DNA of 64,000 nucleotides from Takakia lepidozioides (GCA_030704615.1 CM060734.1:22382001-22446000), one strand, 5' to 3'. Shown: positions 14,301 to 64,000, counted from the stretch's first letter. The notes: generated from the letters alone by a model not told the origin. A program made the numbers and translations.

Positions 14301-14574
14301 ACACTTGTCCATGTTTAACAGGCCCTCGAACAAAAAATGGTTTTTTTTTTTTTTTTTTTTTTTTTGGCCCGGGGGCAATATTGGGGGTGGGGGCAGAAGT
14401 GGTGTGCGTTGACGCACTCAATTTTAGAGGCTCGTTAACCAAACCCGATAAAAAAATAAACTACCTTTCATGACAAGACATCGCCTGCTTGTCTAGATTT
14501 AAGAACTGTGTATACATAATCTACAAACAAGGCAGCCCTTTCCGACATTGCGAAAAATCGCAACATATGCAACA

Positions 14575-14874: not shown

Positions 14875-17462
14875 CAGTGAATGACGATACCGTCAGTCAC
14901 CCACTCATTGTGCGGTAAACCCTTAACAGAGGAGTAGAAAGCAAATCACCGTTGTTTCATGGTGATGGTCGGTAGCGACAATCCATTTCTGGGACATTCC
15001 ACTCAATCTCTACACAGATCTTCAACAATGAAATGTAAGTTAGAGAAAACTTACTGGCGCCCTTGAAATTGGATCCCCTTCTGCAGCTTTCCCCTTCCCT
15101 CTCACATCTGCTGGAATTTATGTCTGCTCTAGGGTTTCTGGACCTTCTCCCGGTTTAGCGTTCCTCATACTTCCACCTCCTTCAGTTTCCCTGCGAGTCA
15201 TCTCGGCATCCACAGGCTGGTTTCCAACGCGCAATGTTATCGCCGACTGTGTCACAGCCACTGCCTCAGTCTCGGTCTGCTCTTGTGAATCAATCTCCGC
15301 GTTCCTCGGCCCTGTGTTCTCCAACAAACGACGCCTCGTCATTTGCTCTTTTGCTCTGCGTCTCTCTCTAAGGGAAGTAAAATAAAGAGACTTTATTCTC
15401 TTTCGTATTGTAGAAGGAACCCTCTCCAGCTTGACTACCACTCTCCCTCTAAGCGCGAAAAGTAGAAAAACGAAGTGACTCCCGATTTCTTGCGGGATTG
15501 CGTGCGTTGTTGCTTGTCTCTAGAAGCATCGGATTCCCTCTCGCGTAACCGTTACACGTAGTCGTTCCCTTAATAGTGCACATGCCAGCAATTAGTGTAT
15601 AGCTGTTCGTATTCAATTATCGATGTCTGACGTGTGTCGCCCAAAATAAACGGCGTGTTCTTTATTAGAATGGTTTCAATATTTAAAAATAACAACGAAT
15701 CCCAGAAATCTTGGCGCACAGTCTTAGACAAATATATGTAAATGAACAAGAGTTTGATAACAAATTTTGGGATATCATACACATTCATCCTTGTTAGCCA
15801 ACCCCACGTTCGTTTCACATTTTGAACTTTCCAGGTACGCATGATCATTGGTAGTAGTATAAAGATACATTTACTTAATCTGCAATCCCACCCTCAGATC
15901 CTGTGGCATGCTTCCAGGAAGTCGGCTTGTTATTGAGTTTATTGATGAGGTTTTGATTAACGGTTTAATAGCTGCCGACATTGCTCCTAGGGATACTCTG
16001 ACCACTGGGCCCACAAGAAAAGTAATTAAAATGGACGGCTGCATATCTGGAAGGAATAACAGAATATGCACAGTCGTCGTCTGAGCTTCCTCCGCCATAT
16101 TCTCTGCTCATTCTTCAACTGTGTTCTGGAGACATCAGTAAACCGATTTACACTGAAGGTCTGTGATAGCAAGGTATCAACGTACGCGAGGAAGGAAGAT
16201 GGCTTCCTTTGAAGCGGAGTTCTTCTCTGACGACAAACCAGTGCCGTTCTCCCAGGAAGTCCTTGACAATGGATTTGCAATTGTTCTGGAACATGTCTTG
16301 GCTACCCGTTTTCAGCTTCAGAATGGCTCCATCTTTTTGGAGAAAGAGGTGTACGATTTGAAAGGGAAGTTGTTGAAATACTCTTTCCAAAACCGTGATA
16401 AGACGGCTCATGTCAGCCAGTGGAGAGTGCGCCCTGGTCGATACAGAGTACTTGGAGAGCCTCGACGAAAGTCCCTTGGGTCATATGTGACGCCCAGGAC
16501 TGCTGCTTCGGTCGTTGAAGACAAGAGGGAGGTGGTGGTGAAAAAAGAACAGACGTCCTCCACTCCAATCGTTGAGCTTTCGGATTCGTCCGATGATGAC
16601 ATAAGTGAAATTCCAAATCCAGTCCTTCCTATTGTGGTTGGAGAAGCTGATGAAGAAGAGATTTGTAGTGTCATTCCAAAACTACAGGCGATGGGAGGAA
16701 TGGCTGGATTCAAAAGTGAGTTGCGAGGAATTGATTAGGAATCTTTGAAGCAGGTGCTTGTGAAGTTCTTGCCAGAGACTTTTGATGGCGATATCCTATT
16801 CGAGCTGCCTCCTCCTCCGCGAGTTGGAGGTATAACAATCATGATGCATGGAATGGACAAGAAACACGACGGGCACCCGTGGTGCAGAACAAAAACATCC
16901 AATATTCAGAATGATGACAAGCTTGTTTTCAGGAGAACAGTTTGCAATGGACACCTTAGGTGTGATAATTTGAATTGCAGACACTTTCTTCAGTCTGGGG
17001 TTCATAATCAAAGCGAATGGGAGGGTCTGGCGGAAAATCCATTTCAGCCTGGGACTGCCCCACCACCGGCAAACACTTTCGTCTGCAAATTCTGCAAACT
17101 TGTGCCATCCTGCTTGGCGCTCTGCGGAGCAAGAATGTACTATGTTGTCCACCGTTTGAAAACAATGACAAGAGCTTGTGTGCATTTCGGATTCCATAAC
17201 CATCCTGTCTCGAAGGGGGATTACAGGGAGAGTGTTGAGACAGTATCGAGGTTGATGAAACAGGAGTTTGGGAGAAACCCATCCGCAACAACATCTACAA
17301 TTGCTCTTGGCGCAAGCAAGTCCTTCTTGGAAAGCCATATTTTGAGTGAAGGGGATTCTGTGGGGACTAAACTTGACGGTGCAGCATTGGACCTGGTCAT
17401 GGATCATTTCTCCACTTTGAGTTCACCTAACATTCGGCATCAGAGCAATGCATTAAGAATGG

Positions 17463-17789
17463 TGTCAAGTTATTTTACCACTAGTGTGAAACTAGCTAGG
17501 AAATAGCTATCTTTTACATATTGACATTTGGGATTGGCCCAAGTGTCAATCCAGGCGTCAAGGCAGATTTAGGCCCTGGAGTGGTTATCTTCACGGCAAG
17601 CGCGGGAGGCTCATCTTTCTTGAGTTGAGCCTCACCGCGCCTAGCTATGGCGCCGTAGTGTGGATTCCCCATGGCGTGGGGTGCACTTGGCTTGACTTGT
17701 ATTTGAGTGATGAGGTTATATATGCATGAGTTTATGCTTCAGCTTTGTGAGCTCGCATGAGCTCGTGCTTGTATTCTTCTTCTTTATCA
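17463..17789 (+). repeat. Terminal repeat A1
   Basis: Near-identical to 28085-28410 and 58250-58576; TG...CA ends. Confidence 0.95.
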
Positions 17790-17805
17790 CTCGAGAAAGA
17801 TGAGC
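17789..17805 (+). other. Putative self-priming primer binding site
   Basis: ACTCGAGAAAGATGAGC begins at the last base of A1 and is complementary to GCTCATCTTTCT(C/T)GAGT at 17609-17625; there is no TGG tRNA-type PBS. Confidence 0.6.
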
Positions 17806-19329
17806 TCGTATCTATGAGTGCTAGATACGAGTTAGTTGTAGCACTTGTGGTTTTTGCTTGAGAATGAGAGAAACCAAGTTGTTATGCAAGGAGCACCGTG
17901 GAGCTCTTGGTTGTTAGAAGCGGAGGCGATGTGGGTTACGAGGTGGTAAACCTTGGCATTCGATCTTCAGCTTCAGAGATGAAAGCACCATACTGTAGGT
18001 AATTCCAGAGCACCTTGATGGTTTCAGATTGTGTACATGCATGAGCAAGCACGATTGGGAAGAGGACCAGTCAAGAGCAGGTTATAGTGGCTTTGGTGGC
18101 AAAGCTGAGAACTGGACTTGGGAATGCGAGCTGTCATTGTGTGAAGGATTGCAAGACCAAGCGAAAGGGCTGATTTGGCTTGGGGCAAATCAGTGCACTT
18201 TGTGGAGTATGGTGAGATGGGTTTTTCAATCTCGAGCTTCAGCATTGAGAGGGCTCTTGTCATGGCAGAGCAGCAGGGCTGGAACAGGAGCTAAGAGGTG
18301 CGGCAAGGCATGGAATGTGCACCTAGGGTTTCAGAGCTTGGAAGAAGAGCTCTTGCACCACAAGAGAAGTGTCTTGTGGCTGGAAATGTAAGCCTTAGGG
18401 TTTCAGGAGCTTGGCAAAGGCTATGGAGTGCTTAGTCTTGTCTTAGAGAGCATCAAGGAGCCAAGGAGCCAAGATAGGGGGCTGATATCTCTTGTGTGAA
18501 GAGGTTGCATGTGTGGAGCATGTATTCAACTCATTGAAGCTTCCATCTTCAAGCTTGGAGGGCAAGCAAGGAAGTGGGAAGGGCTAACTTCCCTTATGTG
18601 AGGGCAATGCATGTGTGGAGCATGCTATCAGCCTGGTGAAGGCTTGCACTTTTAGGTGTGGGAGTGCAAGGAATGAAGGAAGGGGCTGGTTTCCCTGTAG
18701 GGCATGTAGAGCATGCTTTCAGCCTGCTGAAGCTTGTATTTTTCAGGTTTGTGGGTGCAAGAAATGAAGCAAAGGAGCTGATTCTCTTATGGTGAGAGTG
18801 GGGCATTTGTGGAGCATGCCTTCAGCCCATTGAGGCTCTTGTTTTCAAGCCTTAGAGAGCTAGAACGGAAGGTCTAGGGCTGGTTTCTACTTGGAGTGAA
18901 AGAACAGCACTTGTAGGGCCTATGTGAGTTGGGGTTTCAACTTCAAGCTTGAAGGAGCGCAACTCTTGAAGCAACAGGTGTAGAGGGCTGGAATAGGCTC
19001 TAAGACAGATGCTATGGCCAATGAGGGGAGTGCTTGAATGAGTGCTCACAAGGGCTGGGGAACCAGCAGGGCTTGGTTGTTTGCCATTGAGTTTAGTGGC
19101 GTGTTTTGGGAGGCTAAGTGAGAAAGAAGGCTTGGTTTGTGGCACCACCTCATGGCTTAGGGCTACTATGGTGGTGTGTGGGAGCCGAAAGAGCAAGGAT
19201 ACCTTGCTGATTCCTTCCTCACAGCCACCATAGCTCGGTGGAAAGAACCTAGAGTCCAAGAGACAAACCCTAGCTTTGGCGTGGCTAAACCCTTGGAGAA
19301 ATGGCTAAACTGCCAGAGAACAGGCCATG

Positions 19330-20170
19330 TGTGGGGGCTGTGACAGGCTGTGGCAAGCTGGACGGGCTGTGACGGGCTGTGTCAGGCTGTGGCGAGCTGT
19401 GACGGGGCCGTGCCGAGGCCTTTGAGGCTGTATGGGCTTGACAGGCTGTGCCCTGTGCCCTGTGTACTGTGACGGGCTGTGTCAGGCTGTGGGCTGTGAA
19501 GGGCTGTGTGCTGCCCTGTGACGGGCCTGTGGTGTGGGCCTGCCTGTGCCTTTGGGCTGTGATGTGAGGGCTGTGTGCCTGAGGCCTTAGGCTGTGACGG
19601 GCTGTGAGGCAGGCTGTGAAGGCTGTGCTGACAGGCTGTGCCCTGGGGGGTGGGGCTGTGAGGGGCTGTGACAGGCCGTGCCCATGGCCTTTGGGGCTGT
19701 GACGGCTGGCAGGCCGTGCCTGAGGCCTTTGTGGGGGGCTGTGACGGGCTGTGAACTGAGGGCTGCTGTGAAGAAGAGGGCTGTGACAGGCCGTGCCTGA
19801 GGCCTTTGAGGCTGTGGGGCTGTGATGGGCTGTGACAGGCTGTGACGGGCTGTGGGGTGCCTGGCCATGTGACAGGCCTGTGTGTGACCTGTGACTAGGC
19901 CTGTGGGCTGCCTTTGGGCTGTGAGGGCTGTGAGGGCTGTGACAGGCCGTGCCTGAGGCCTTTGGGGCTGCTGTGAGGGGCTGTGATGGGGTGTGACGGG
20001 CTGTGATGTGACAGGCTGTGCCTGTTTGTGTGACTGTGAGGGCTGTGACAGGCAGGCTGTGACCTGTGAGGGGCTGTGATGTGCTGGCCTGTGGGACTGT
20101 GCTGTGACCAGTGAGCTGTGTGGGCCTGTGCTGGTCTGTGGTTGTTGACCTGTGGATGGCCTGTGCTGAC
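19330..20170. repeat. Low-complexity (GGCTGTGAC)n-type array in the retrotransposon leader
   Basis: Dozens of GGCTGTG/GGCTGTGACG variants; a shorter remnant lies at 60105-60222 in copy 2. Confidence 0.95.
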
Positions 20171-20369
20171 TCTGGAGGCACTGGTTAACTGGCATGTGGT
20201 CTGGAAGGCCGAATTTTGAAGCTCGTGGAGGGCGGTTTGAGGAGTATCTTCATGATATTCCCATGGTCATGCAAGTTCAGGTGTAGGCTATGTTAGGAAC
20301 TTAGTATTCCAAACCATAAGCCGCAACAGGTTCTCTACCCGGTTACCTTGTGGAGAGGGGGTTAGGGAC

Positions 20370-23300
20370 ATGTTCATGACCGTTGAGTCAACACGGAGGT
20401 GCCACTAGTTGCTGGGGACAGTGCCGGTTCGAGCACTAGCGATACTAGTGGGTACACGAGACGAGGTGTGCGGTTTAGGCCACCTTCACCTCCTGTGTCT
20501 TCTACGGAAGGTTCTGATTCGGATTGTGAATCAGGAGGACTCATACCGGCGGTGCAAGTTGTTTCTTTGCCATTGTTGTGGGACACAATGGAGGAGATGT
20601 ATGGAGCTACCAAGGGGCCACGAGGTACTCTGGGCGGTGGGCACCATCGAGTTGGATGATTTTATCCAAGAGTTTGATAGTTGGTGTGATTTGCAGCAAA
20701 TGCGCAATCCACAACTATTTACGCCTTCATGGCATGGAAAGGGCTGTTTCAGCACCTTGAGGGCCCGCCTATGGATGATTACCATGAGTTCAGGCGGGGG
20801 CATGAGGTTGAGATCGAGGAGTGGAGGATGTACTGGTCACCCGACTATGTCTCCATCACTAGGGGCACTAGAGCCACGAGGGCAGTGGCTACACCTGCCG
20901 CTGCACCGCAGCTTCAGCAAGTAGCAGTGGGACTGGTGGTACAGTAGCTACGTCCACCCAAGCCACTACCGCACCAGCACTAGCACCCGTGCCTGCCTTC
21001 AACCCTGTTTGTGGAGTTCTTCGAAGAGTTGAGAGGGAACTACCAAGGGGTGAGGACAGAGAAGTTGCGGAGCTTGCAAGAGTTCCAACGGAAGCCGACC
21101 GAGAGCTTGAGGGAGGCTTTCACTCGCATGAGGCGCTTGATAAATGTAACCCAAGGGTTACGGAAGCTCAGGCAGTCCAATTCTGGTATGGGATATTGGA
21201 CAAGGAGCTGAGGAGAAGGGTGCGGGATGCAACTCTCCTACAAGCGGCCCAACCCACCTTAGCAAATGTGTTTTTGCTGGCAGAGCGGATAGAGCTCAAC
21301 ATGGTGGAGGAACGAGTGGTCATGGTGGGATTTGCTAAGGAGACACCACGGGGTAGTGGTGCTCCTAGCCAACCACTACCTCAACGTGCTCAAGGCAACA
21401 AGGGGCTCAGGTGAAGCTCAGGGAAGGGCAGAGAGACCTCAGATGCAGGGGTCTCTCCCTTCATTTGCTGGCCAACAACGGGCGGATGTGGTGTGCTGGA
21501 CATGTGGAGGACCCCATGTCAGAAGGATTGCCAGAGGGAGGCAAAGGGCCGGCACATGCACAGCCTGCACAGTTGCAGTGTGGGCATTGTGGCAAACACG
21601 GGCATGGAGAGGCCAGTGTTATGGTTTGCATCCTGAGTTGCGCCCAGGCCAGTTCCAAGGGAACAATGGTGGCCGGGGCGAGGTGGAGCAGCCCAGAGAG
21701 GACGAGGTGGCCAGCCACGAGGTGCAGGCCAAGGGCAAGCTCAACGTGGCCAAGGACGCGGAGGTCAGGTGTTGACCAAGGCATGGCCAACCGGCTTCAG
21801 CAGCTAGAGCAGAGGCTCGCTGCCATGGCTACAGCTCAGGTGGTACCGGCTCTAAGGCCGGATGGTCCACCTCCTGCTCCTGAGGGAGGAGATATGGGAG
21901 GCATGGGATTCATGTGTGGAGCAGCACTACCACTAGTGCAGGTGGAGTCTGCTGCAGCCGTGACTCGAGGAGCAGCACGAGTTCCTGAGCCACGGGTGCA
22001 GAGGTGGAGTTGGATCCACAGCGTGGGGAGGCAAGCCGTCAGGCTAGGCTTCCTCAGTCATTCACATTGGCGGAGACAGTGTCGACGCCATCCATGGCAC
22101 CTAGTTCTCGCCCGACTGTTACCGAGCGGAGGTTACTATGCCATTGGGGAGAGCTACACGGGTAGCACCACTACCTAGTGTTGCCAAGGCTACGGCAGCT
22201 AGTGTGCTGCTAGGAGCGGCCACATCTGTGTGCCAGGCTCATTGTTCTCGACCATGATTGCGACGCCGGGGGTAAGACCAGCTGAGGTGTTCAGGCTGGC
22301 AGCTACACTCTGAGAGTGGGGAGGTTACTTCATCTTCTGCGGAGATAGTGGGGTGTAGTGCCGGAGGGATCCTCGGATTTGAGGGTCAAGACTGCCACGG
22401 CGGCGCCATGGCAAGCTGCAGCTGCCAGGTTGATGGAGCTGCCAGCTAGGCCAGCCATTGAGCGCGCCATGGTGACACCTGGAGTTGTCATGTTAGACAA
22501 CCAGGATGGCATTTTCTGTTTGAGTGGACCGGCAGGCAAGAGGTACCGGCCACTGCGAGTCTTGTTGGACTCGGGAGCTCAGCCACTGATGCTGGGCAGA
22601 GCTGCTATTGCAGGCTTGGGCCTCACGGAGGCGGATATGGAGCCTTGTCCTTTCCAGATACAGACGTCTCTGGGAGGATCGGAGCAGGCTCGGGGCATGA
22701 CACGGCTGAGTTGGCTATCAGACTACGGCCGGATCACCCTACAGATGGCTCAGTGATGCGAGCCAAGGCCATTGTGACAGACGCAGTCTCATACGATGTC
22801 CTGGTTGGTGGGGCAGTGTTGTACCCCATGGGCTTCACCCTGGATTTTTGGGAGGAGTCAGCTTCCTATAGGCCTGCATGGCAGTCAGGGAGGGCCGGCG
22901 TGTGCAGCTCCCTGTGACGTTCATAGGAGGAGTTGCGGTTGCCCAGCGAGGCAAGATGCCGACACTAGCAGCATTCACAGCGGCAGTGAGTTGGCCTAGA
23001 GAGTTGCTTGAGGGCAATGCTCATTCAGAGGATGTACCACCTCCGGGAGAGCAGGATGACATGTATGGTATGGCGGAGTTGCCTACCATGGTTGCTCAGA
23101 CTCCATTGTGGGGCACGAGCAAGGATTTGCAGCGGGATGCTGATCGACGGGTGCAACAAGCCCTGGGTGGAGGCTTTTGTACCGTCAGGAGAGGAGGAGA
23201 GTGTGGGGATTGCACCAGGACCACCTCAATTGTCTCCATTGGACACCACACCTATTGTGTGGCAGTCTCCGGATGAAGGCATTTGTCTTCTGGACTTGTT

Positions 23301-26300
23301 TGGCGGGATCAGCACCGGATTGGCTGCTGTGTTACAGGCAGGTGTACGAGTTCGGCGTTACCTGTATGTGGAGAGGGATGAGACTGCACGACGCGTTTCA
23401 CTTCGCCATGTTGCTCAGTTGGTGCAGCGGTACCCTGAGTTGTTGTCGGTGTCTGCAATTCGTGGATATCAGCAGCCTTGCCAGCAGACATTTCGTTGCT
23501 GGGGGCGCAGATTTGGAGCGGGTTGGCTCCATTGATCTGGTAGTGGCAGGTTGGCCCTGCCAAGGGCATTCATCAGCCGGGCATGGCAATGGATTGCGAG
23601 ACTCGAGGTCGGGTCTGTTTTGGGAGATGGTGCGGGTTTTGCGCCACTTGCAGCTTCATCAAGCTGTATCTCCAGCATACATCTTGGAGAATGTGCCACT
23701 GATGGGCGATTCTCGGGCCAGGTGATGGCCAGTGTGCATCAAGTCCGGTCGTGGCTTGGGTCAGCAGTGTTGCTAGATGCAGCTACAGTGGGGTCACGGG
23801 CTCATCGTCCACGGCTATGGTGGACTAACTGATGCCACCCGCACTGCTCAAGCGTGCATTTGATGGGGTGCAGCGGCCAGCACATCTCACAGTGGATAAC
23901 ATTCTGGACACAGGGAGGCAGTCTCAACGTGTGAGACACGATGACCGTTCGCCTTTGGCAGTGGTCAACAAGGTGGGTCAACCACGAGCAGCATTACCTA
24001 CACTGCAGCTTCCCAGGATCGCATGCTTTCCGGGATAGTGGACCTGGCCTCCTGTGGGATGCTCAGTTGCAGCAGTTAGTGGAGCCTAATGCTGACGAGC
24101 GTGCGGGCAATGGGTTTTACCACTGGTACCACGGCGGTGTCGTCTCTTTCTGAGGCATCACGTCGTCAAGTGTTGGGGCAAGCAATGGATCTCAATTGCT
24201 TGACCTGGATTATCAGCTTGGCTCTAGCTGAGCAACGCAGAGTGCGGAATACACTTCCCTCAATGGTCTCTCTGCCTACCGAGACGGTACAGGCAGTGAG
24301 TGGGGGCGAGCATGTGAGGACCACGGGGTGCATGCATCCATGGCACACGTGGGAGGTGCTCGAGGTTCAGAGAGGTTGGCAGCCAAGGCGCTGTGATGGA
24401 TGAGGTTGGGGATTCTTCTCGGTTGAGGAGGTCCTCAAGGATGAGATGGGGCAGGATGAGCCTTGTCATTGACTGAGCAGGTAGGGAGTACTGCTCAAGA
24501 GGTTGCAGCATAGCAACCACGGGACGCGTCCTCTACCTCTAAGCCCACTGGACTTAAGGTTGTAGTTACGGAGGACAATTGGGAGCCTGACATTGGACCC
24601 ATTGTCACCGGAGGAGAGAGACGACGTATACGGCGGTTCCTGAGGGCTTACAGGAATTGCTTTGCCTTCAGTTTGAAGGACTTGGGAGCACTGAAGGGTC
24701 AAGAGATCCGTATTGAGTTGGCCACTGACACGCCAATCTTTCGGAGACCCTATAGATACAGTGACATGGAGAGGTCTTTGATTCAGATGAGGACTCAAGA
24801 TCTCTGGGAGGCAGGTTTGGTGGAGCTCTCTGGTGGAGAGTATGCTTCAGCCACAGTGATGCCAGCCAAGAAGGATGTCTATGGCAATTGGACGGAGAGA
24901 CGTATGTGCGGTGATTACCGGCCTGTAAATCGTCAGACCAAGTCCGATAAGTATGCCATGCCAACACCAGAGGAGATCTTTGATGCCATCGGGCATGCTA
25001 AGGCCTTTAGCACTTTGGATTTACGATCCGGATATCACCAGTTGCCAATCAAGGAGGCGGACAAGCAGAAGACGGCATTCTGGGGATCAATGAGCACGGC
25101 AAGGATTGCCTATATCAGTGGCGGTTCTTACCATTTGGGCTTAAGAATGCTCCTGCAGAGTTTCAGAGAGTCATGGATAGGATTCTAGCAGGGGTGGACT
25201 TTGCTCGGTGCTACATAGATGACATCATCATCTTTAGTGTTACGATGGAGGAGCATGAGAGACACCTTCAGGTGGTATTGGAGCGCTTGAGAGCGCACGG
25301 ATTGAAGTTGCATCCGGGGAAGTGCAAGTTTTTCCACAACCAGATTGAGTATCTGGGTCACATGATATATCCTGGAGGATTGGGGGTACAGCAGACTAAG
25401 GTAGAGGCCATTGCACAAATTCCACGCCCCACGGATGTGAGCCGAGTTCGAGCTTTCATGGGGTTGGCAAACTATTATAGACGGTTTGTCAAGGGATTTA
25501 GTACCATTGCAAAGGCTCTAACCAAGCTGACCAAGGTGACCAGGAGTGGCAGTGGGAAGATGAGCAGGAACGAGCTTTTCAAGAGCTCAAGGCGAGGTTG
25601 ACCTCGGCGCCTATCTTGAGACGACCTATCAGGGGGCGTCCCTTTCAGCTGCATACGGATTGGAGCATGCTGGGGCTTGGAGCGGTGCTCACACAGGTGG
25701 ATGATGAGGGAAGAGAGTTCGTAGTGGCTTACGCTAGCCGCTCGAACAACGCTGCAGAGGCTAAGTACAGCTCATATGAGGGAGAGTGCTTAGCTGCAGT
25801 GTGGGCCGTGGCACACTTCAGGTGCTATCTATACGGCAATCTTTTCACCCTTGTCACGGATCACCAGCCACTCAAGTGGTTGATGGAGTCAGACAAGCTT
25901 ACGGGGAAGCTTGCACGGTGGGCACTTATACTCCAGGAGTATGACTTTCAGGTTGTGCATCGACCGGGTTTGGTCAATCGGGATGCGGATGGATTGAGTC
26001 GCAATCCATGCATGAGCCAGCAGGATGACACTGGAGCTCGGTGGCATGGTGAGACGGACGAGGAGATGGTGCCGGGATGGCACGCATCTGCATTTTGTGT
26101 ATCTTGGCATCGGGAGGTCAGATTGGACCTACAACAGGATGACTGTAGACGGAGTGTCTGAGGACCCTGAGGCTAGTGATGAGCTAGGTGGTGCCAGAGA
26201 TATACATGAGGATTCGGCTGTGTTGGACTACCTCCGCACGGGAGACACGGCAGCCATTGTGACTGCCAGGGAGAGGGATCGGATCCTGCAACGAGCCAAG

Positions 26301-27639
26301 AGGTTCAAGTGGGAGGGGATACACCTACTTCGAGTGTGGGAGGATGGTCGGGTGAGGATTGTGCCTCACCCCACACAGCGTGCACGGTTAGTGCGGCATG
26401 CCCATGAGGAGTTTGGGGCATTTTGGAGTGCGACGCACTCACAGTTTACTGCAGGGCAGTATTGGTGGCGTGGTATGCATACAGAGGTGCAACAGTTTGT
26501 GGCTAGGTGCATGGTGTGTGACAGGGTGCGTGCTTCATTCAACGCCCCTACACCACAGTTGCATCCTTTACCTATCATGGATTGGGCTACAGGTGGAGTC
26601 TTGACTTCGCAGACCGTTGCCACTGACTATGCGCCACCACAGATATGTGTTGGTGATGGTGGAGCACTTCTCCAAGTGGATTGAGTTGGTTCCATTGCCT
26701 GACAAGGCTAGTGAGGGGGCTGCGTATGCATTCTTGGATCGTGTGCTTAGCCGATTTGGTGCTCCAGCTGAGGTACTCACGGACCAAGGGAGAGAGTTCT
26801 TGGGGGAGTTTCAGGCTTTGTGATAAAGCCTTGATAGACCACCGCACCACTTCTCGGGATCATCCTGAGGCCGATGGCTTAGCAGAGAGAGTTGTTCAGA
26901 CGGTGAAGAGGGGTTTGCGCAAGTATGGCTTGCAGAAGGGACACCTAGGAGATTGGGATCTTCAGGTTCCTTGGTTAGCCATGGGCTACAGGTTCAGCAA
27001 ACAAGCATCACTTGCCTCCTTCTCACCATATTTCCTTCTCTTTGGCCGAGAGCCGGATTTGCCTGCAGCCATTCGTAGGGACACTGCTCAAGTCCTTAAC
27101 CTTGACGATCCGGACGTGTGGGTACGTGCATGTGATCAGCGTGCAGAGTTGTTCAAGAAAGTCATGCCCATGGCTTTTGAGAACCTTGCCATTGCACAGC
27201 ACCGTGATACGTTGAGGTATGCCACTATACGTGGTGGAGGATATCGTCCTGGGGTTCGGAGGTTTAGCCCTGGTGACTATGTTTATTTGCAGCAGACTGC
27301 TCCTACGACTCTGGATGTTACTGCAGGGCGTGTTATTCTGAGGGTTCGAGAGGTGTTGCCCTCAGGGGTCCTGATCTTAGAGGGTCGGGATGGCATGACT
27401 TGGAAAGACCATGTGCGTAATTGTGCGCCATGTCACCTTCCCAATGTCGATGGCAGAGTTGACCCAAACTTGGCAGTGGTACCTGCAGGTTTGAGGTGCA
27501 TGCTCTGTGGGTCTGCCAAAGGGGCAGCCACCATGCTGGTGTGTGATCGTGCTCAAGGGGTTGGCATATGGGATGCTTGACACCACCTCTTGAGAAGGTT
27601 CCTGACGGAGATTGGTTGTGTCCACACTGCTTGGGATAG
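20370..27639 (+). CDS. Gag-Pol polyprotein of copy 1 (many 1-2 nt frameshifts): gag with two Zn knuckles, aspartic protease, C5-MTase, RT, RNase H, integrase, PHD
   Basis: CWTCGGPH and [10 protein letters not shown]; LLDSGAQ (Asp at 22568); [16 protein letters not shown] and YIDD (25212); LHTDWS..YASR..TDHQPL; HAH..GH..CMVC; WSLDF, TDQG and LAERVV; stop TAG at 27637-27639. Start position is approximate. Confidence 0.9.
23278..24210 (+). other. DNMT3-like C5 cytosine DNA methyltransferase domain within pol (copy 1)
   Basis: LDLFGGI (motif I), YVERD (II), AGWPCQGHS (IV, Cys at 23558), ILENV (VI, 23687), [10 protein letters not shown] (VIII), ERxRAMGF (IX), [10 protein letters not shown] (X). 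Confidence 0.92.
27497..27630 (+). other. PHD finger at the integrase C-terminus
   Basis: After one 1-nt frameshift correction: [38 protein letters not shown], a C4HC3 pattern. Confidence 0.9.
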
Positions 27640-27887: not shown

Positions 27888-27894
27888 AGGGGGG
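27888..27894 (+). other. Putative polypurine tract
   Basis: AGGGGGG lies 3 nt upstream of the start of B1. Confidence 0.55.
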
Positions 27895-27897
27895 CGA

Positions 27898-28599
27898 TTG
27901 TGTGGACTAGTGACTGCCATAGTGGGCAGCGTAGTGGCAGCCTAGTGACTGACTAGTTGTAGCCTAGTGGTTGGACTAGTGGACTAGTGGTAGACTAGTG
28001 GTATACTAGTGTGTGGTGTGCACATGTGTTGTGTGGTTTTGGACAGCGATGTAGTTGTGTAGCGATATGTATGCGCACGACAGCTGTCAAGTTATTTTAC
28101 CACTAGTGAAACTAGCTAGGAAATAGCTAGCTTTTTACATATTGACATTTGGGATTGGCCCAAGTGTCAATCCAGGGGTCAAGGCAGATTTAGGCCCTGG
28201 AGTGGTTATCTTCACGGCAAGCGCGGGAGGCTCATCTTTCTCGAGTTGAGCCTCACCGCGCCTAGCTATGGCGCCGTAGTGTGGATTCCCCATGGCGTGG
28301 GGTGCACTTGGCTTGACTTGTATTTGAGTGATGAGGTTATATATGCATGAGTTTATGCTTCAGCTTTGTGAGCTCGCATGAGCTCGTGCTTGTATTCTTC
28401 TTCTTTATCATTGTGTGGACTAGTGACTGCCATAGTGGGCAGCGTAGTGGCAGCCTAGTGACTGACTAGTTGTAGCCTAGTGGTTGGACTAGTGGCTGGA
28501 CTAGTGGTAGACTAGTGGTATACTAGTGTGTGGTGTGCACATGTGTTGTGTGGTTTTGGACAGCGATGTAGTTGTGTAGCGATATGTATGCGCACGACA
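27898..28599 (+). repeat. 3' terminal block: B1 (27898-28082), GC, A2 (28085-28410), B2 (28411-28599)
   Basis: B1 and B2 are identical except for a 4-bp indel; A2 matches A1; the B1/A2 junction is the palindrome GACAGCTGTC. Confidence 0.95.
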
Positions 28600-31417
28600 A
28601 TGGGCTCTAATATCAGAGGCTACATAGACAACATTTTGGAGTTGAAACGAGTGAGCAAGTACGATTACATCCAAGACAATGTATTCCCAGGTCAAGGTGC
28701 CATCAAAGTTTTTCTTTTCAAAATGTCGACTGTTGGGGAGGGCAGCGGGGTTAGCCTCGTGAAGCGGATGCAGAAGACTGGGGACTTGCAGAACTGTTTT
28801 CTTATGTTTGATCATGTGAAACGAGTGAAGGATTAGACGACAATGGCTTGTCATGTCTACGATCTAGTGTACCGACGAGTTATGACAATTGCAGTTTGTG
28901 ACATGCAATCCAAGGATACGGAATCCCAGAAGCTCATGTGGAATTCCCTGATACGTGTCATGGGCTGCCATCTCCAAATTTCGCAGGTTTCATGGCGGAT
29001 AGTGCTCAAGCAAATTTCAATGTTGTTCGTATTGTCTTCGGATCGGGCGACCCAAAAGTGCCAATGCGAGGAAGAGAACGTACATGTCTATTCCATTGGA
29101 CACAATCTCTGGAAAAACGTACAAGTCGGACATCAAACCAGAGATGCAGACTCAGCACCGTAAATTGTGCAAAGAGTACAAAGATGCTAGAACAATGAAG
29201 GAAGCGGACACTTTGTTCCAGACAATTCGTGCCTGGTGGTTCTCTTCTGAAGCTGCATCACTTGAGAGTATGAGAGCATTGGAAGATTGGCTGGCGTTTT
29301 GGCACTTCCGGTATAGACAGTGGGGAGCAGCCATGGCAGTGGTACGAGGCTTATATTTCTTGCTTTATTCATACATTTACTTTCCATTTTATTGTCTCAT
29401 CATTTTCTTTGTGTTGTTTTATGTTCACTGTTTTGAAGTGTGGTTCTCTACTTTGCAGAACATGTCCATTGAGGAAATGGCGGACATGCCATCTTGCAAT
29501 TTGGCAGAAACTGTGCACAACGCATGGTTGCAGCAGTCTGGGAAACGAGGTTGGGATTTGTATGTGGCAACAACAAATGATTTGATATGTGCCTTGCAAC
29601 AACAAACCCGATACCGTGATTTCTTGCGAGGTGGGGTTGGTGGAGGTGGAGTGTTCAATTCCCTCTTACAGGAGCCGAATCTCCCCTCCCCCTTCAAGAT
29701 GTGGAACTCTAGAAACAAGTGGCGTTCCCTGGGCATACATGCTCACCGCCCGTGCTATCTTGATTGGATCCCCAGATCTGTTTGCAGCACGCAACATCAA
29801 CTCCCATTTGTCCGGACCCTGGTTCAGATTCCGATTCACACAGGGCTTCTCGAAGCCTCGTGTTCCCTTGCATGACAGCTCCATGTCCGGAACCTCCATT
29901 GTGGAGGAACCTCCAACACGACGGCAAGCTCCAGCATCAAACAGTGCCACTGAAATGGTGCAGGAGAGAAACAACCCCCTTGATGTGCTTGAGTCCATAT
30001 GCCCCGACCACGTTTGGCACATAGAACGCACAAGTGTAGGGTCTCGTGTGAAATGTATAGCGATCAGGGCAACTAATTTCGAGAAGTGCACTTCATCAAT
30101 ATCCAGAGGTGGTGCCCGAACTCCTGCTCCGACTTTCACGGGTTTGATGCGTCCATACGGTCAACCAGAAGCCAAGAACCACAAGTTATGGTTCTGCACA
30201 GATGATTGTGCCAAATGTGTGCATGGAACTGTGCGTCCTTCCATAGTGATGAAGTCATTTCCTCCAACCGTTTGGCCCGTGAAGGTGGGAACACATCTCA
30301 GATTTTAGGAGATTGAAATGCTGGAGGAGGCAGGCTTTTCCCTTGCGAGACAACCCCAACTCCATGCATGTGCTACTACTTCTGCGTCCTCCCGGGTCCC
30401 CCGACAAATCCTGACTTGTGGCCAACCAAACGAGATGGAAAGCTCGTTCGGCGTTTCCTTCCAACCGCTGAACACTTTGGCAAAGTGGAGTCCGCAAGAA
30501 TGCTCCAAGCTCGTGTTGGAAGCACCACGGAAGTACCCGATCCAGGATATGGTCGGGTATTCACAATCATCACTTCCACATCTGCTGTTCATGACAGGAC
30601 CTACGACATCACGGTTTCCAATTCCCCCCCAATTGCACATGTCTGATTTTGTGAATATGCTATCAACCAGTTTTGGGCAAGAGAGGTAAATTCATACCCT
30701 GCAAACATTTGTATTTCATATTTTTGAAGGAGATGGTTTGCGATCCCAAACGTGACAACTTCATTCACCAGGCCACTATGAGTTTCAACGAGGTCGATAC
30801 TCTATTGCAGCGGGATACAACACATGGGTAGCATCAACTATGCAATGTGGTATGTGGACGACCATGATTTAAAATGTGTAATTCACATCAATTCGTCGGC
30901 GGTGCAATGATATGGCCTCCAATTATACTGAGTGAGCTCTGAGTGGCAACTTTTAAAAGCACATTTGTCATTGCACCGTTCGAAGGCTACATGTCTTGCT
31001 GTCGCTATGCACTACAATCATCTTTTGAAGATGATCCTAACTCTCATTGTTATTTGAGGAGGGAGGAAGGTCTTCCCGTGGCAGCCTCTATGGTGCACAC
31101 TTTGTGAGGATATTTTCTCGTCCTCGTAATTGTAAAAGTGAAACAAGCATTTGTAATTGCACAATGTTGGATGCTACAATTGTAGGCCTCATGGTAGTCT
31201 TGATTCTATTTAGGCAAGATTCCCTGCATTAATTCCACGGTCATAGGACCATCCTCGGTTATAGGCGGCGCATGTTAATGCTGACGTGGCAGATGACGGA
31301 CAGTGCCACGTCATCATTTGCCGCCACATCAGCATGCTGACATGACGGTCACGCCACGTCAGTGTGGGTGCACGCTCACGCCACGTCACTCCTGCGTGAG
31401 CGTATGCTCGCGCGCTC

Positions 31418-57820: not shown

Positions 57821-58249
57821 TGTCAAGTTATTTTACCACTAGTGTGAAACTAGCTAGGAAATAGTTGGTTTTGATATATTGACATTTGGGATTGGCCCAA
57901 GTGTCAATCTAGGGCCAAGGTATGTTTAGGCACCTGGCGTGGTTATCTCCACGGCAAGCGCGGTGGGCTCATCTTTCTCGAGTTGAGCCCACCGCGCCTA
58001 GCTATGGCGCTGTAGTATGGATTCCCCATAGCATGGGGTGTATTTGGCTTGACTTTATATGAGTGATGATTTCATGTGCAAAGTTTGTGAGCTAAAGATT
58101 CTTCTTATTTATCACTCGAGAAAGATGAGTGCCAGATACGAGTTAGTTGTAGCACTTGTGGTTTTTGCTTGAAAATGAGAGAAATCAAGTTGATATACAA
58201 AGAGCACCGTGGAGGTCTTGGTTGTTAGAAGCGGAGGCGATGCTAGTTA
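57821..58249 (+). mobile_element. 5' end of a related subfamily element (variant A, PBS and leader), interrupted by copy 2
   Basis: Starts TGTCAAGTTATTTTACCACTAG, retains ATCA|CTCGAGAAAGATGAG, and is collinear with 17463-17938 up to GTTA. Confidence 0.9.
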
Positions 58250-61200
58250 TGTCAAGTTATTTTACCACTAGTATGAAACTAGCTAGGAAATAGCTAGCTT
58301 TTACATATTGACATTTGGGATTGACCCAAGTGTCAATCCAGGGGTCAAGGCAGATTTAGGCCCTGGAGTGGTTATCTTCACGGCAAGCGCGGGAGGCTCA
58401 TCTTTCTCGAGTTAAGCCTCACCGCACCTAGCTATGGCGCCGTAGTGTGGATTCCCCATGGCGTGGGGTGCACTTGGCTTGACTTGTATTTGAGTGATGA
58501 GGTTATATATGCATGAGTTTATGCTTCAGCTTTGTGAGCTCGCATGAGCTTGTGCTTGTATTCTTCTTCTTTATCACTCGAGAAAGATGAGCTCGTATCT
58601 GTGAGTGCCAGATACGAGTTAGTTGTAGCACTTGTGGTTTTTGCTTGAGAATGAGAGATTCCAAATTGTTATGCAAGGAGCACCGTGGAGCTCTTGGTTG
58701 TTAGAAGCGGAGGCGATGTGGGTTACGAGGTGGTAGACCTTGGCATTCGATCTTCAGCTTTAGAGATGAAAACACCATGCTGCAGGTAATTCCAGAGCAC
58801 CTTGATGGTTTCAGATTGTGTACATGCATGAGCAAGCACGATTGGGAAGAGGACTAGTCAAGAGCAGGTTATAGTGGCTTTGGTGGCAAAGCTGAGAACT
58901 GGACTTGGGAATGCGAGCTTTCATTGTGTGAAGGATTGCAAGACCAAGCGAAAGGGCTGATTTGGCTTGGGGCAAATCAATGCACTTTGTGGAGTATGGT
59001 GAGATTGGGTTTCAATCTCGAGCTTCAGCATTGAGAGGGCTCTTGTCATGGCAAGAGCAGGGCTGGAACAGGAGCTAAGAGGTGCGGCAAGGCCATGGAA
59101 TGTGCACCTAGGGTTTCAGAGCTTGGAAGAAGAGCTCTTGTACCACAAGAGAAGTGTCTTGTGGTTGGAAATGTAAGCCTTAGGGTTTCAGGAGCTTGGC
59201 AAAGGCTGTGGAGTGCTTAGTCTTGTCCTAGAGAGCATCAAAGAGCCAAGGAGCCAAGATAGGGGGCTGATATCTCTTGTGTGAAGAGGTTGCATGTGTG
59301 GAGCATGTATTCAGCTCATTGAAGCTTCCATCTTCAAGCTTGGAGGGCAAGCAAGGAAGAGGGAAGGGCTGACTTCCCTTATGTGAGGGCAATGCATGTG
59401 TGGAGCATGCTATCAGCCTGGTGAAGGCTTGCACTTTCAGGTGTGGGAGTGCAAGAAAGGAAGGAAGGGGTTGGTTTCCCTGTAGGGCATGTGGAGCATG
59501 CTTTCAGCCTGCTGAAGCTTGTATTTTCAGGTTTGTGGGTGCAAGAAATGAAGCAAAGGAGCTGATTCTCTTATGGTGAGAGTGGGGCATGTGTGGAGCA
59601 TGCCTTCAGCCCATTGAGGCTCTTGTTTTCAAGCTTTAGAGAGCTAGAACGGAAGGTCTAGGGCTGGTTTCCACTTGGAGTGAAAGAAAAGCACTTGTAG
59701 GGCCTATGTGAGTTGGGGTTTCAACTTCAAGCTTGAAGGGAGCGCAACTCTTGAAGCAGTAGGTGTAGGGGCTGGAATAGGCTCTAAGACAGATGCTATG
59801 GCCAAGGAGAATGCTTGAATGAGTGCTCACAAGGGCTGGGAACCAGCAGGGCTTGGTTGTTTGCCATTGAGTTTAGTGGCGTGTTTGGGAGGCTAAGTGA
59901 GAAAGAAGGCTTGGTTTGTGGCAACCACCTCATGGCTTAGGGCTACTATGGTGGTGTGTGGGAGCCGAAAGAGCAAGAATACCTTGTTGATTTCCTCACA
60001 GCCGCCATAGCTCGGTGGAAAGAAGCCTAGAGTCCAAGAGACACAAACCCTAGCTTGGCGTGGCTAAACCCCTTGGAGAAATGGCTAAACTGCCAGAGCG
60101 GCCATGGATGGGGCTGTGACGGGCTGTCCTGTGGCCTTGGGGGCTGTGACGGGTAGTGAGGGGCTGTGCCGGTGGCCTTCGGGGCTGTGCCGGGCTGTGA
60201 CGGGCTGTGTCAGGCTGTGGCGGGAGGAGTGGAGGATGTACTGGTCACCCGACTATGTCTCCGTCACTAGGGGCACTAGAGCTACGAGGGCAGTGGCTAC
60301 ACCTGCCGCTGCACCGGCAGCTTCAGCAAGTAGCAGTGGGACTGGTGGTACAGTAGCTACAACGTCCACCCAAGCAACTACCGCACCAGCACTAGCACCC
60401 GTGCCTGCCTTCAACCCTGTTGTGGAGTTCTTCGAAGAGTTGAGAGAGAACTACCAGGGGTGAGGACAGAGAAGTTGCGGAGCTTGCAAGAGTTCCAACG
60501 GAAGCCAACCGAGAGCTTGAGGGAGGCTTTCACTCGCATGAGGCGCTTGATAAGTGTAACCCAAGGGGTTACGGAAGCTCAGGCAGTCCAATTTTGGTAT
60601 GGGATATTGGATAAGGAGCTGAGGAGAAGGGTGCGGGATGCAACTCTCCTACAAGCGGCCCAACCCACCTTAGCAAATGTGTTTTTGCTGGCAGAGCGGA
60701 TAGAGCTCAACATGGTGGAGGAACGAGTGGTCACGGTGGGATTTTCTAAGGAGACACCACGGGGTAGTGGTGCTCCTAGCCAACCACTACCTCAACGTGC
60801 TCAAGGCAACAAGGGGGCTCAGGTGAAGCTTGGGGAAGGGCAGAGAGGACCTCAGATGCAGGGGTCTCTCCCTTCATTTGCTGGCCAACAACGGGCGGAT
60901 GTGGTGTGCTGGACATGTGGAGGACCCCATGTCAAGAAGGATTGCCCAGAGGAGGCAAAGGGCCGGCACATGCACAGCCTGCACAGTTGCAGTGTGGGCA
61001 TTGTGGCAAGCACGGGCATGGAGAGGCCCAGTGTTATGGTTTGCATCCTGAGTTGCGCCCAGGCCAGTTCCAAGGGAACAATGGTGGCCGGGGGCGAGGT
61101 GGAGCAGCCCAGAGAGGACGAGGTGGCCAGCCACGAGGTGCAGGCCAAGGGCAAGCGCAACATGGCCAAGGACGCGGAGGTCAAGGTGTTGACCAAGGCA

Positions 61201-64000
61201 TGGCCAACCGGCTTCAGCAGCTAGAGCAGAGGCTCGCTGCCATGGTTACAGCTCAGGTGGTACCGGCTCTAAGGCCGGATGGTTCACCTCCTGCTCCTGA
61301 GGGAGGAGATATGGAAGGCATGGGATTCATGTGTGGAGCAGCACTACCACTAGTGCAGGTGGAGTGTGCTGCAGCCGTGACTCGAGGAACAACACGAGTT
61401 CCTGAGCCATGAGGTGCAGAGGTGGAGTTGGATCCATAGCGTGGGGAGGCAAGCCGTCAGGCTAGGCTTCCTCAGTCATTCACATTGGCGGAGACAGTGT
61501 CGACGCCATCCATGGCACCTAGTTCTCGCCTGACTGTTACCGAGGCGGAGGTTACTATGCCATTGGGGAGAGCTACACAGGTAGCACCACTACCTAGTGT
61601 CGCCAAGGCTACGGCAGCTAGTGTGCTGCTAGGAGCGGCCACATTTGTGTGCCAGGCTCCATTGTTCTCGGCTACCATGATTGCGACGCCGGGGGTAAGA
61701 CCAGCTGAGGTGTTTAGGCTGGCAGCTACACTTTGTGAGAGTGGGGAGGTTACTTCATCTTCTGCGGAGATACTGGGAGGTGTAGTGCCGGAGGGATCCT
61801 CGGATTTGAGGGTCAAGACTGCCCCAGCGGCGCCATGGCAAGCTGCAGCTGCCAGGTTGATGAAGCTGCCAACTAGGCCAGCCATTGAGCGCGCCATGGT
61901 GATACCTGGAGTTGTCATGTTAGACAACCAGGATGGCATTTTCTGTTTGAGTGGACCGGCAGGCAAGAGGTACCGGCCACTGCGGGTCTTGTTGGACTCG
62001 GGAGCTCAGCCACTGATGCTGGGCAGAGCTGCTATTGCAGGCTTGGGCCTCACGGAGGCGGATATGGAGCCTTGTCATTTCCAGATATAGACGTCTCTGG
62101 GAGGATCGGAGCAAGCTCGAGGCATGACACGGCGTGAGTTGGCTATCAGACTACGGCCGGATCACCCTATAGATGGCTTAGTGATGCGATCCAAGGCCAT
62201 TGTGACAGACGCGGTCTCATACGATGTCCTGGTTGGTGGGGCAGTGTTGTACCCCATGGGCTTCACCCTGGATTTTTGGGAGGAGTCAGCTTCCTATAGG
62301 CCTGCATGGTAGTCAGGGGAGGGCCGGCGTGTGCAGCTCCCTGTGACGTTCATAGGAGGAGTTGCGGTTGCCCAGCGAGGCAAGATGCCGACACTAGCAG
62401 CATTCACAGCGGCAGTGAGTTGGCCTAGAGAGTTGCTTGAGGGCAACGCTCATTCAGAGGATGTACCACCTCTAGGAGAGCAGGATGACATGTATGGTAT
62501 GGCGGAGTTGCCTACCATGGTTGCTCAGACTCCATTGTGGGGCACGAGCAAGGATTTGCAGCGGGATGCTAATCGACGGGTGCAACAAGCCTGGGTGGAG
62601 GCTTTTGTACCGTCAGGAGAGGAGGAGAGTGCGGGGATTGCACCAGGACCACCTCAATTGTCTCCATTGGACACCACACCTATTGTGTGGCAGTATCCAG
62701 ATGAAGGCATTTGTCTTCTGGACTTGTTTGGCGGGATCAGCACCAGATTTGCTGCTGTGTTACAGGCAGGTGTACGAGTTCGGCGTTACCTGTATGTGGA
62801 GAGGGATGAGACTGCACGACACGTTTCACTTCGCCATATTGCTCAGTTGGTGTAGCGGTACCCTGAGTTGTTGTCGGTGTCTGCAATTCGTGGATATCAG
62901 CAGGCCTTGCCAGCAGACATTTCGTTGTTGGGGGCGCAGGATTTGGAGCGGGTTGGCTCCATTGATCTGGTAGTGGCAGGTTGGCCCTGCCAAGGGCATT
63001 CATCAGCCGGGCATGGCAATGGATTGCGAGACTCGAGGTCGGGTCTGTTTTGGGAGATGGTGCGGGTTTTGCGCCACTTACAGCTTCATCAAGCTGTACC
63101 TCCAGCATACATCTTGGAGAATGTGCCACTGATGGGCAATTCTCGGGCCAGGGTGATGGCCAGTGTGCATCAAGTCCGGTCGTGGCTTGGGTCAGCAGTG
63201 TTGCTGGATGCAGCTGCAGTGGGGTCACGGGCTCATCGTCCACGGTTATGGTGGACTAACTTGATGCCACCCGCACTGCTTAAGCGTGCATTTGATGGGG
63301 TGCAGCGGCCAGCACATCTCACAATGGATAATATTCTGGACACAGGGAGGTAGTCTCAGCGTGTGAGACATGATGACCGTTCGCCTTTGGCAGTGGTCAA
63401 CAAGGTGGGTCAACCACGAGCAACATTACCTACACTGCTCAGCTTCCCAGGATCGCATGTTTTTCGGGATAGTGGACCTGGTCTCCTGTGGGATGCTCAG
63501 TTGCAGCAGTTAGTGGAGCCTAATGCCGACGAGCGAGAGCGGGCTATGGGATTTTCCACTGGGACCACGGCGGTGCCTTCTCTTTCTGAGGCATCACGTC
63601 GTCAGGTGTTGGGGCAAGCAATGGATCTCAATTGCTTGACCTGGATTATCAGCTTGGCTATGGCTGAGCAACGTAGAATGAGGAGTGCACTTCCCTTGAT
63701 GGTCTCTCTGCCTACTGAGACGGTACAGGCAGCGAGTGGGGGCGAGCCGGTGAGGACCACGGGGTGTAGATATCCATGGCACACGTGGGAGGTGCTCGAG
63801 GTTCAGAGGGAGTTGGCAGCCAAGGCAGCTGTGATGGATGAGGTTGGGGATTCTTCTCGGGATGAGGAGGTTCTCAATGATGAGATGATAGGGCAGGATG
63901 AGGACTTGTCATTGACTGAGCAGGAAGGGACGCGTCCTCTACCTCTAAGCCCACTGGACTTAAGGTTGCAGTTACGGAGGACAATTGGGAGCCTGACATT
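58250..64000 (+). mobile_element. Ty3/gypsy-type retrotransposon, copy 2 (runs off the window; internal deletion at about 60222; nonsense mutations)
   Basis: A at 58250-58576; leader, gag, PR and MTase are collinear with copy 1 up to about position 24594. Confidence 0.95.
62705..63640 (+). pseudogene. DNMT3-like C5 methyltransferase domain of copy 2
   Basis: LDLFGGI, GWPCQG (Cys at 62988), LENV, HRPRLWW, ERERAMGF and [10 protein letters not shown]; TAG stops at 62853 and 63351. Confidence 0.9.

Follow-up and report, generated by a model that had tools for sequence, protein, structure and literature searches.

A Ty3/Gypsy retrotransposon in the moss Takakia lepidozioides carries a DNMT3-like C5 cytosine methyltransferase (DNMT) domain that closes the frame encoding Gag and protease (PR) and is separated from reverse transcriptase (RT) by a conserved stop codon. 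Two copies of this element, 95% identical over 3.8 kb, are present in the 64,000-nucleotide stretch of DNA analyzed here (GCA_030704615.1 CM060734.1:22382001-22446000, hereafter the window). Copy 1 is bounded by split repeats in the order A-ORF-B-A-B (ORF, open reading frame) and not by ordinary paired long terminal repeats (LTRs). For this broken Ty3/Gypsy copy we lean, on the whole, toward a model in which a Gag-linked enzyme and a leaky stop codon would be combined with methylation of the complementary DNA (cDNA) and integration from a circle. Homology searches returned 330 and 81 proteins; below, L-numbers denote homologous DNA loci and P-numbers homologous proteins.

A DNMT3-like domain maintained by selection

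A preliminary description of this DNA had reported a DNMT3-like domain in both copies, with its motifs in DNMT3 rather than permuted DRM order and its catalytic residues intact. The domain is indeed present in both places: Pfam family PF00145 matches the piece from copy 1 (E = 2.4e-12) and the piece from copy 2 (E = 4.4e-15), and motifs I, IV, VI, VIII, IX, and X were located in each (Table 1). The motifs run from I to X between those of protease and RT, which is the DNMT3 order; because this order is not permuted, a DRM-type methyltransferase is rejected. The top sequence matches in the PDB are DNMT3A and DNMT3B, with E values of 9e-10 for DNMT3A, 3e-5 for HhaI, and 1e-4 for DRM. Fold comparison gave the same result. 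An AlphaFold model computed from a 62-sequence alignment (pLDDT 89.7, pTM 0.90) matched DNMT3B (Z 28.4, root mean square deviation 2.7, 277 aligned) and DNMT3A (Z 27.4) ahead of M.MpeI (Z 24.6) and HhaI (Z 22.9), and Foldseek agrees. The predicted fold of the domain is thus closest to DNMT3A/B among the C5 methyltransferases, with 22–25% identity in the structural alignment. The intact Gag-PR-DNMT frame yielded no match to the PWWP or ADD families.

The statement on catalytic residues holds only in part. The residues are present, but the frames are broken in both copies, and the final part of motif I carries a substitution in copy 2. Copy 1 contains many deletions of 1–3 nt, chiefly within base runs, six of which fall in the domain (near 23475, 23510, 23721, 23830, 24006, and 24101). 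The copy 2 domain lies in a single frame interrupted by in-frame TAG stops at 62853 and 63351, and the peptide ERERAMGF is legible only there. At the 12 copy 1 indel places listed, out of 60, contigs from public runs that carry window DNA have the alternative form, and loose contig ends were found at four more breaks within the copy 1 domain, so these breaks are either private to copy 1 or assembly errors. Approximately 87,000–90,000 contigs per public run match the element, which shows that the family is large and diverse, although contig numbers give no copy number. Four raw RNA runs with a related label yielded no matching reads at 1-in-100 sampling, too sparse to count against expression, and 55 matching contigs came from a presumed RNA run (X12) that may be DNA.

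Homologs retain the catalytic positions. The catalytic Cys is kept in 57 of 60 aligned homologs, the motif VI Glu in 58 of 62, and the motif VIII Arg in 54 of 61; overall, these positions are kept in 52–61 of the 57–62 homologs covering each. The ratio of nonsynonymous to synonymous substitution rates (dN/dS) for the domain is 0.06–0.15 among the intact loci L031, L032, L037, and L082, and 0.09–0.10 between copy 2 and its nearest family (L001, L012, and L027). It reaches 0.27 in distant family pairs that are near saturation. The dN/dS check that had been proposed at the outset therefore indicates purifying selection and not neutral evolution. The idea that the domain was picked up as a passenger and evolves neutrally could draw on the values of 0.65–0.86 among L001, L012, and L027, but all three are dead members of a single family (dS 0.06). 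It is refuted by the between-family values, which for the domain (0.06–0.27) resemble those of the protease region (0.08–0.46) while exceeding those of RT (0.04–0.05), and it is further opposed by the recurrence of the same main clades in the DNMT and RT trees. We find it hardly credible. Because dN/dS is low in intact relatives and high only among dead copies, the domain is selected in active lineages, and we regard it as practically certain that it is real and under selection. Chance insertion of a host gene is rejected, since the domain is found across families.

The domain is probably active on DNA. Two observations count against the overall model: neither copy has an open frame across the domain, even though the catalytic residues are present, and in a sequence alignment the catalytic loop behind PCQ is unlike that of DNMT3A. 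Owing to this difference, the target context cannot be read off.

A conserved stop codon between the methyltransferase and RT

The domain had been placed inside the Pol polyprotein. Instead, the element has two in-line frames, Gag-PR-DNMT and RT-RNase H-integrase-PHD, with a stop codon between them; in copy 1 this is TAG CAA CCA, in phase with the RT frame. We examined the 60 junctions having both a DNMT end and an RT start. In the RT frame, 35 contain TAG-CAR-YY and 17 contain TAA-CAR-YY, giving 52 of 60, compared with a background of 202 of 20,982 TAR triplets (approximately 1%) that are followed by CAR-YY. The motif is kept in the window, L011, the L001 type, L031/L032, L037, and L082, and synonymous sites are near saturation between lineages. 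L031 is an otherwise flawless element whose two in-line frames of 1369 and 1047 amino acids are split by the stop codon, and L082 likewise has two long in-line frames divided by the same codon. Frame 2 has its earliest Met at residue 117, behind the RT N-terminal motif at residue 75. Many homologous proteins of 1230–1450 amino acids stop shortly past the domain and lack RT.

The full UAG-CAR-YYA context occurs in the window, L011, L031, L032, L037, and L082. In the parts of the source covered here, as for all papers cited below, this is the tobamovirus type I readthrough consensus, for which UAA works too (Firth and Brierley 2012, PMC3542737). The stop and the next six bases are alike in the tobamovirus signal and in these six instances. 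In contrast to the viral case, the stop here parts Gag-PR-DNMT from the RT of a retrotransposon, and the sixth base is C in the main metagenome family. On the strength of this context, the stop is very probably subject to ribosomal readthrough. Readthrough of a few percent would yield the long polyprotein, and protease would free the domains inside the particle. Because the stop ends the Gag-PR-DNMT frame, the methyltransferase would be made along with Gag, at capsid-protein levels and well above RT, and would be packaged in many copies per particle. A conserved leaky stop would mean that the enzyme is wanted in bulk, alongside the capsid.

Two other explanations were weighed. According to the first, the DNMT is an ordinary piece of one Pol polyprotein, and the TAG of copy 1 is a decayed CAG codon. 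Several copy 2 stops did arise by C-to-T change at CAG, and no stop divides the DNMT from RT, which lie in a common frame, in the Klebsormidium clade and some others (P0187, P0173, and P0163). However, the stop and its 3′ context persist in 52 of 60 junctions, including those of flawless elements, and the 1230–1450-residue homologs end soon after the domain without RT, which leaves this explanation very remote and, for this clade, largely refuted. According to the second, RT-integrase is made from spliced RNA or by reinitiation around the stop, in which case the DNMT still goes with Gag. Public bryophyte gene models that fuse the DNMT to RT (P0128, P0132, P0127, P0088, and P0160) do splice across the stop, and one family has an ATG two codons behind it. 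Yet each of the five models skips the junction by a different length, no ATG is near the stop in the window, L011, L031, L037, or L082, and the six bases after the stop fit the type I consensus. We consider this route very unlikely.

Several points count against readthrough and Gag-level dosage. The motif is missing from eight of the 60 junctions, which are decayed, divergent, or deleted; copy 2 is one of them, its junction having been removed by a 37-nt deletion near 63925. Most of the 60 junctions come from one metagenome family, and some are the same insertion counted twice. The largest metagenome family has CAA CCC after the stop, which is not a complete CARYYA, and its ATG two codons past the stop makes reinitiation possible there. 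Finally, the DNMT is fused to RT in P0163, P0173, and P0187 and lies between RNase H and integrase in P0158, P0159, and P0166. Because these related clades carry the domain in other positions, Gag-level dosage is not needed everywhere.

Relatives in bryophytes and algae

Named hosts of the homologs are Marchantia polymorpha, Marchantia paleacea, Calypogeia, Riccia, Sphagnum, and Klebsormidium nitens. The M. polymorpha relatives are 65–72% identical over the whole domain and are annotated as hypothetical. Kinship with Klebsormidium elements, as had been suspected, is supported by KFL_009030040 of K. nitens (45% identity over 77% of the domain, E = 3.6e-53). Pfam matches reveal three layouts: Gag-PR-DNMT with no RT behind it, a single PR-DNMT-RT frame (K. 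nitens among others), and RT-RNase H-DNMT-integrase-PHD. Members of a large clade with the last of these include P0158, P0159, P0166, P0169, and P0171, among others.

A quick RT tree of 68 rows was built from 59 of the 160 RT-bearing proteins (each one that carries a DNMT or reaches 47% identity, and every eighth of the remainder), eight loci, and the window piece. A quick DNMT tree had 48 rows; its bacterial outgroups fill under half of the columns and give no reliable root. Three clades recur in both trees: one of land plants, which includes the window copy, one of Klebsormidium, and one in which the domain follows RNase H. In the RT tree, the K. nitens clade (SH-aLRT 100) and the land-plant clade (97) are distinct, with weak joining branches (81–88) and no root. 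Gypsy RTs lacking a DNMT form a 13-row clade (SH-aLRT 98), and none of the DNMT-bearing RTs falls within it. These trees fit a single old capture of the DNMT followed by a later move, with the deep branches weak and the trees unrooted.

Viral contigs gave one distant locus (32%). In prokaryote genomes the matches were four distant methylases from Streptomyces and one complete element located in a cyanobacterial genome bin (L082, 1-9285). The bacterial labels of L082 and of P0024, a homolog assigned to a bacterial metagenome-assembled genome, are probably due to plant or algal contamination. P0420, an element protein of 2710 residues, combines CCCH zinc fingers with RT, integrase, and PHD and shows a weak match to a methyltransferase.

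Split repeats and a possible route of integration

The classification as an LTR element stands as regards its Ty3/Gypsy domains but not its ends, which are A-ORF-B-A-B. The same arrangement occurs in L053 and in L068 (identical with L080), and the 3′ part B-A-B occurs in L028. Copy 1 had been judged a recent insertion, and its repeats agree: A1 and A2 differ by three substitutions and B1 and B2 by none, with seven further gap columns, across 517 aligned repeat columns. Such few differences indicate a young insertion, and a 4-bp target duplication flanks it.

Four signals are kept while A and B themselves diverge, namely the polypurine tract, the B/A palindrome, the TG/CA ends with their duplication, and the primer-site complement. 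The polypurine tract before B1 is the same in L053, L068, L080, and L025, and G-runs are found in L031, L037, and L082. The palindrome is present in the window, L025, L053, L037, and L082, and with one mismatch in L028, L031, and L080. The 4-bp target duplication is perfect in seven of eight distinct insertions. The primer-binding-site position, where a tRNA-type TGG start was not seen in copy 1, is complementary to the inside of A over 17 nt in the window, 17 nt in L044 and L053, 16 nt in L031, and 13 nt in L082 (control median 6–7, 95th percentile 8–9), and the letters differ by family. Within the window the 17-nt match is perfect with A2 and has one mismatch with A1. Among 18 decayed copies, the complement is at least 10 nt in 13. 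By eye, TATA-like boxes stand approximately 26–29 nt before the complementary segment in L068, L031, and L082, and the box of the window is poor.

These end signals are those of a normal LTR once B+A is taken as the true LTR and BA-ORF-BA as the linear cDNA. RNA would start inside A, its own 5′ end would prime the minus strand behind A1 as in Tf1, and the polypurine tract would prime the plus strand at B. Joining of the cDNA ends would then produce a two-LTR circle and create the A/B joint seen at 28410/28411, and integrase would open the left LTR at its B/A palindrome, so that A-ORF-B-A-B would be inserted and a 4-bp duplication would arise. From these signals we slightly favor integration from circular cDNA.

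A serious rival, although a rather doubtful one in our estimation, is that the split repeats are copied in the manner of DIRS/Ngaro elements, the template being an RNA that extends into B2 and the ends being splinted by the B1/A2 junction or its plus-strand copy. The A/B joint would then be templated and not ligated, and integrase would be offered one junction only. Such copying explains why only A-ORF-B-A-B is found and why each of the four complete cases has a precise A2/B2 joint, and the repeat layout equals that of DIRS-type elements (PMC5890265). However, it leaves no usual role for the covarying primer-site complement or the polypurine tract. Three sets of observations tell against the circle. 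A symmetric two-LTR circle has two palindromes, so that A-B-A-ORF-B should also occur, but B precedes A1 in none of 24 5′ ends (20 distinct insertions), and the mirror form was not seen among them. The primer-site complement is below 10 nt in five of the 18 decayed copies. Lastly, 13 loci (11 distinct insertions) have a lone B at their end, and for four of them both ends and duplications are available; these may reflect insertion of a one-LTR circle, recombination between B repeats, or short-read collapse. A 127-bp terminal overlap in L082 was rejected as evidence of a circle because it is an assembly loop.

Proposed target of the enzyme

With modest preference, we take the cDNA of the element to be the main methylation target, as proposed earlier for a retrotransposon DNMT (PMC5890265). 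The abundant enzyme would methylate the long-lived extrachromosomal DNA before insertion, and methylated cDNA would arrive resembling host chromatin, or shielded. In yeast, two SymbioDIRS domains methylated CG de novo; a Klebsormidium relative produced no methylation, a result that its authors called inconclusive and that goes against our view (PMC5890265).

Alternatively, free enzyme made with Gag could act mainly on genomic copies or on the insertion site, either silencing the element itself or interfering with host methylation. Gag-level synthesis would far exceed the need of one cDNA, and de Mendoza et al. raised the possibility of a slowing of transposition that benefits the host (PMC5890265). 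Moreover, C-to-T differences between copies 1 and 2 affect 21 of 298 CG and 26 of 457 CHG sites versus 31 of 1245 CHH sites. However, host moss methyltransferases would leave the same C-to-T spectrum anyway, and in the large clade with the domain between RNase H and integrase the enzyme would move with the integration complex. A genomic target thus appears unlikely.

We also considered a reading that unites the enzyme with the repeats, in which a green-plant Gypsy lineage gave up linear-end integration, the circle is cut at a palindrome within the LTR, and the DNMT3 acts as a timer resembling restriction-modification. The CG by the palindrome, which in the window, L025, L037, and L082 reads CACGACA-GC-TGTCA, would be methylated, the junction would be protected during reverse transcription, and methylation would decide which of the two junctions integrase opens. 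This is a quite unlikely scenario; if true, it would account for the one-sided permutation and for the recurrence of methyltransferases in split-repeat retroelements.

Relation to known elements

The closest described element is KnitGypsy-Dnmt3, whose domains are those of Gypsy and whose repeats are of the DIRS type (de Mendoza et al. 2018, PMC5890265). Both have the Gypsy order PR-RT-RNase H-integrase with a DDE integrase, a nonpermuted, intronless Dnmt3-like domain before RT, A-ORF-B-A-B repeats, and purifying selection on the DNMT (Ka/Ks under 0.2). The present element differs in its moss host, in its near relatives in liverworts and Sphagnum, and apparently in its RT and DNMT clade, the branches that join it to the K. 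nitens clade in the RT tree being weak. Furthermore, its DNMT closes the Gag-PR frame before a conserved stop, whereas that of KnitGypsy-Dnmt3 lies inside Pol and shares the RT frame. It is therefore a land-plant branch of KnitGypsy-Dnmt3, as a variant and not a strict member, since the DNMT is outside the Pol ORF. SymbioDIRS-Dnmt3 likewise carries a Dnmt3-like domain in an A-ORF-B-A-B retroelement (PMC5890265), but it uses a tyrosine recombinase, in contrast to the DDE integrase, PHD finger, and 4-bp duplications found here. Membership in DIRS/Ngaro is rejected: L031, in which two frames reach at least 200 amino acids, has rve and no recombinase family, and target duplications are present.

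By sequence complementarity, the primer-binding site is of the self-priming kind described for Tf1/Tcn1. As in Tf1/Sushi and Tcn1 elements, which also have moss hosts, it is complementary to the element's own LTR and not to a tRNA (Neumann et al. 2019, PMC6317226). Unlike Tcn1 and the Tf1/Sushi chromoviruses, the element has a PHD finger, a DNMT, and split repeats; Pfam detected no chromodomain at E values up to 0.05 in L031 and L082, where a PHD finger is found instead. The main text of PMC6317226 does not contain the words methyltransferase or PHD. Foamy virus integrase is reported to cut the palindromic LTR-LTR junction of two-LTR circles (Delelis et al. 2005, PMC1180852), and the proposed opening of a circle at a palindrome by a DDE integrase would resemble this. 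In the viral case the site is the LTR-LTR junction and the product is normal and linear, whereas here the palindrome lies within the LTR and the genome would be permuted.

The concept of such an element and its repeat layout are already published for an alga (PMC5890265). The covered parts of that paper give no replication model for the repeats. Our literature search, which left most subscription papers and Repbase outside its scope, found no report of land-plant copies, of the conserved stop or readthrough, or of a repeat mechanism, and the same holds for the covered parts of a 2025 follow-up (PMC12344493) and of bioRxiv 10.1101/363937. The text supplements of PMC5890265 do not contain the words Marchantia or Sphagnum; its supplementary figures may show ORF layouts or bryophyte sequences. 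The hosts described for retrotransposon-borne methyltransferases since 2018 were algae. Because M. polymorpha is a genetic model with methylation mutants, the role of these enzymes can be tested in a land plant. The end signals suggest a concrete, testable way in which an integrase element could come to have DIRS-like split repeats, and LTR finders that require paired terminal repeats would miss such elements.

Features of the two copies and of the surrounding DNA

Coordinates are collected in Table 1. In the intact relative L031, Pfam Asp_protease_2 scores under the cut-off.

Table 1. Positions of element features in the window, counted from its first nucleotide.
Feature	Position	Strand	Basis or remark
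Left 4-bp target-site duplication	17459..17462	+	repeated at 28600-28603
Repeat A1 (TG...CA), copy 1 5′ end	17463..17789	+	
Segment within A complementary to the bases behind A1; predicted RNA 5′ end and self-primer	17608..17624	+	
Primer-binding-site position, complementary to the inside of A	17790..17805	+	
GC-rich degenerate tandem repeats, long 5′ leader	19335..20175	+	
Gag, frameshifted in copy 1; zinc knuckles at 21494 and 21579	20588..22102	+	tblastn with Marchantia P0124
Aspartic protease, LDSGA at 22565	22427..22890	+	
DNMT3-like C5 cytosine methyltransferase, copy 1	23251..24244	+	Pfam, motifs
Methyltransferase motifs, copy 1	I 23290, IV (WPCQ) 23552, VI (LENV) 23684, VIII (HRPR) 23803, IX 24107, X 24167		
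In-frame TAG then CAA CCA (UAG-CAR-YYA context), end of Gag-PR-DNMT	24511..24519	+	
Reverse transcriptase and RNase H, RT YIDD at 25212	24574..26095	+	Pfam
Integrase, H2C2 zinc domain and core	26199..27400	+	Pfam; rve in intact relatives
C-terminal PHD finger and stop	27480..27639	+	PF00628, E = 4.8e-7 on a 30-residue piece
Polypurine tract abutting B1	27888..27897	+	
Repeat B1	27898..28082	+	
10-bp palindrome at the B1/A2 junction, CA-GC-TG core; predicted integrase cut site	28079..28088	.	
Repeat A2	28085..28410	+	
Repeat B2, ends in CA, copy 1 3′ end	28411..28599	+	
Right 4-bp target-site duplication	28600..28603	+	
Copy 2, 5′ part (A, leader, Gag, PR, DNMT), truncated by the window end	58250..64000	+	
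Protease motif, copy 2	61992		
DNMT3-like domain of copy 2, one frame, two TAG stops	62679..63680	+	Pfam
Methyltransferase motifs, copy 2	I 62718, IV 62982, VI 63114, VIII 63234, IX 63543, X 63603		

The 5′ leaders of both copies contain repeats of approximately 100 bp (18479-18847 and 59264-59655). In copy 2, the GC-rich tandem array and the start of gag are mostly deleted. An older A repeat (81–89% identical) with a primer site lies directly before copy 2, at 57821-58242, and the insertion site of copy 2 seems to have been the leader of a related element. Copy 1 splits a reading frame that occupies 16739-17462 and resumes after the right duplication at 28600-29875. Its left part (16739-17462) matches no Pfam family, and the interrupted frame may be a transposase-like gene.

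The land-plant host named in the preliminary description is a moss, as indicated by a NAC gene from the SOG1/NAC73-75 group whose exons lie at 50241-51825. The best named matches of the exon at 51262-51825 are from Ceratodon and Physcomitrium (64–65%), followed by Sphagnum and liverworts (approximately 50%). Elsewhere in the window are PPR gene fragments on the minus strand (8119-9243), an AT-rich satellite of approximately 60-bp units (12908-14316), and a decayed LINE-like element (31400-38050) with a zinc knuckle and an RT recognized by Pfam. Within this LINE-like element lies an approximately 110-bp piece of the Gypsy gag region (37349-37465, 79%).

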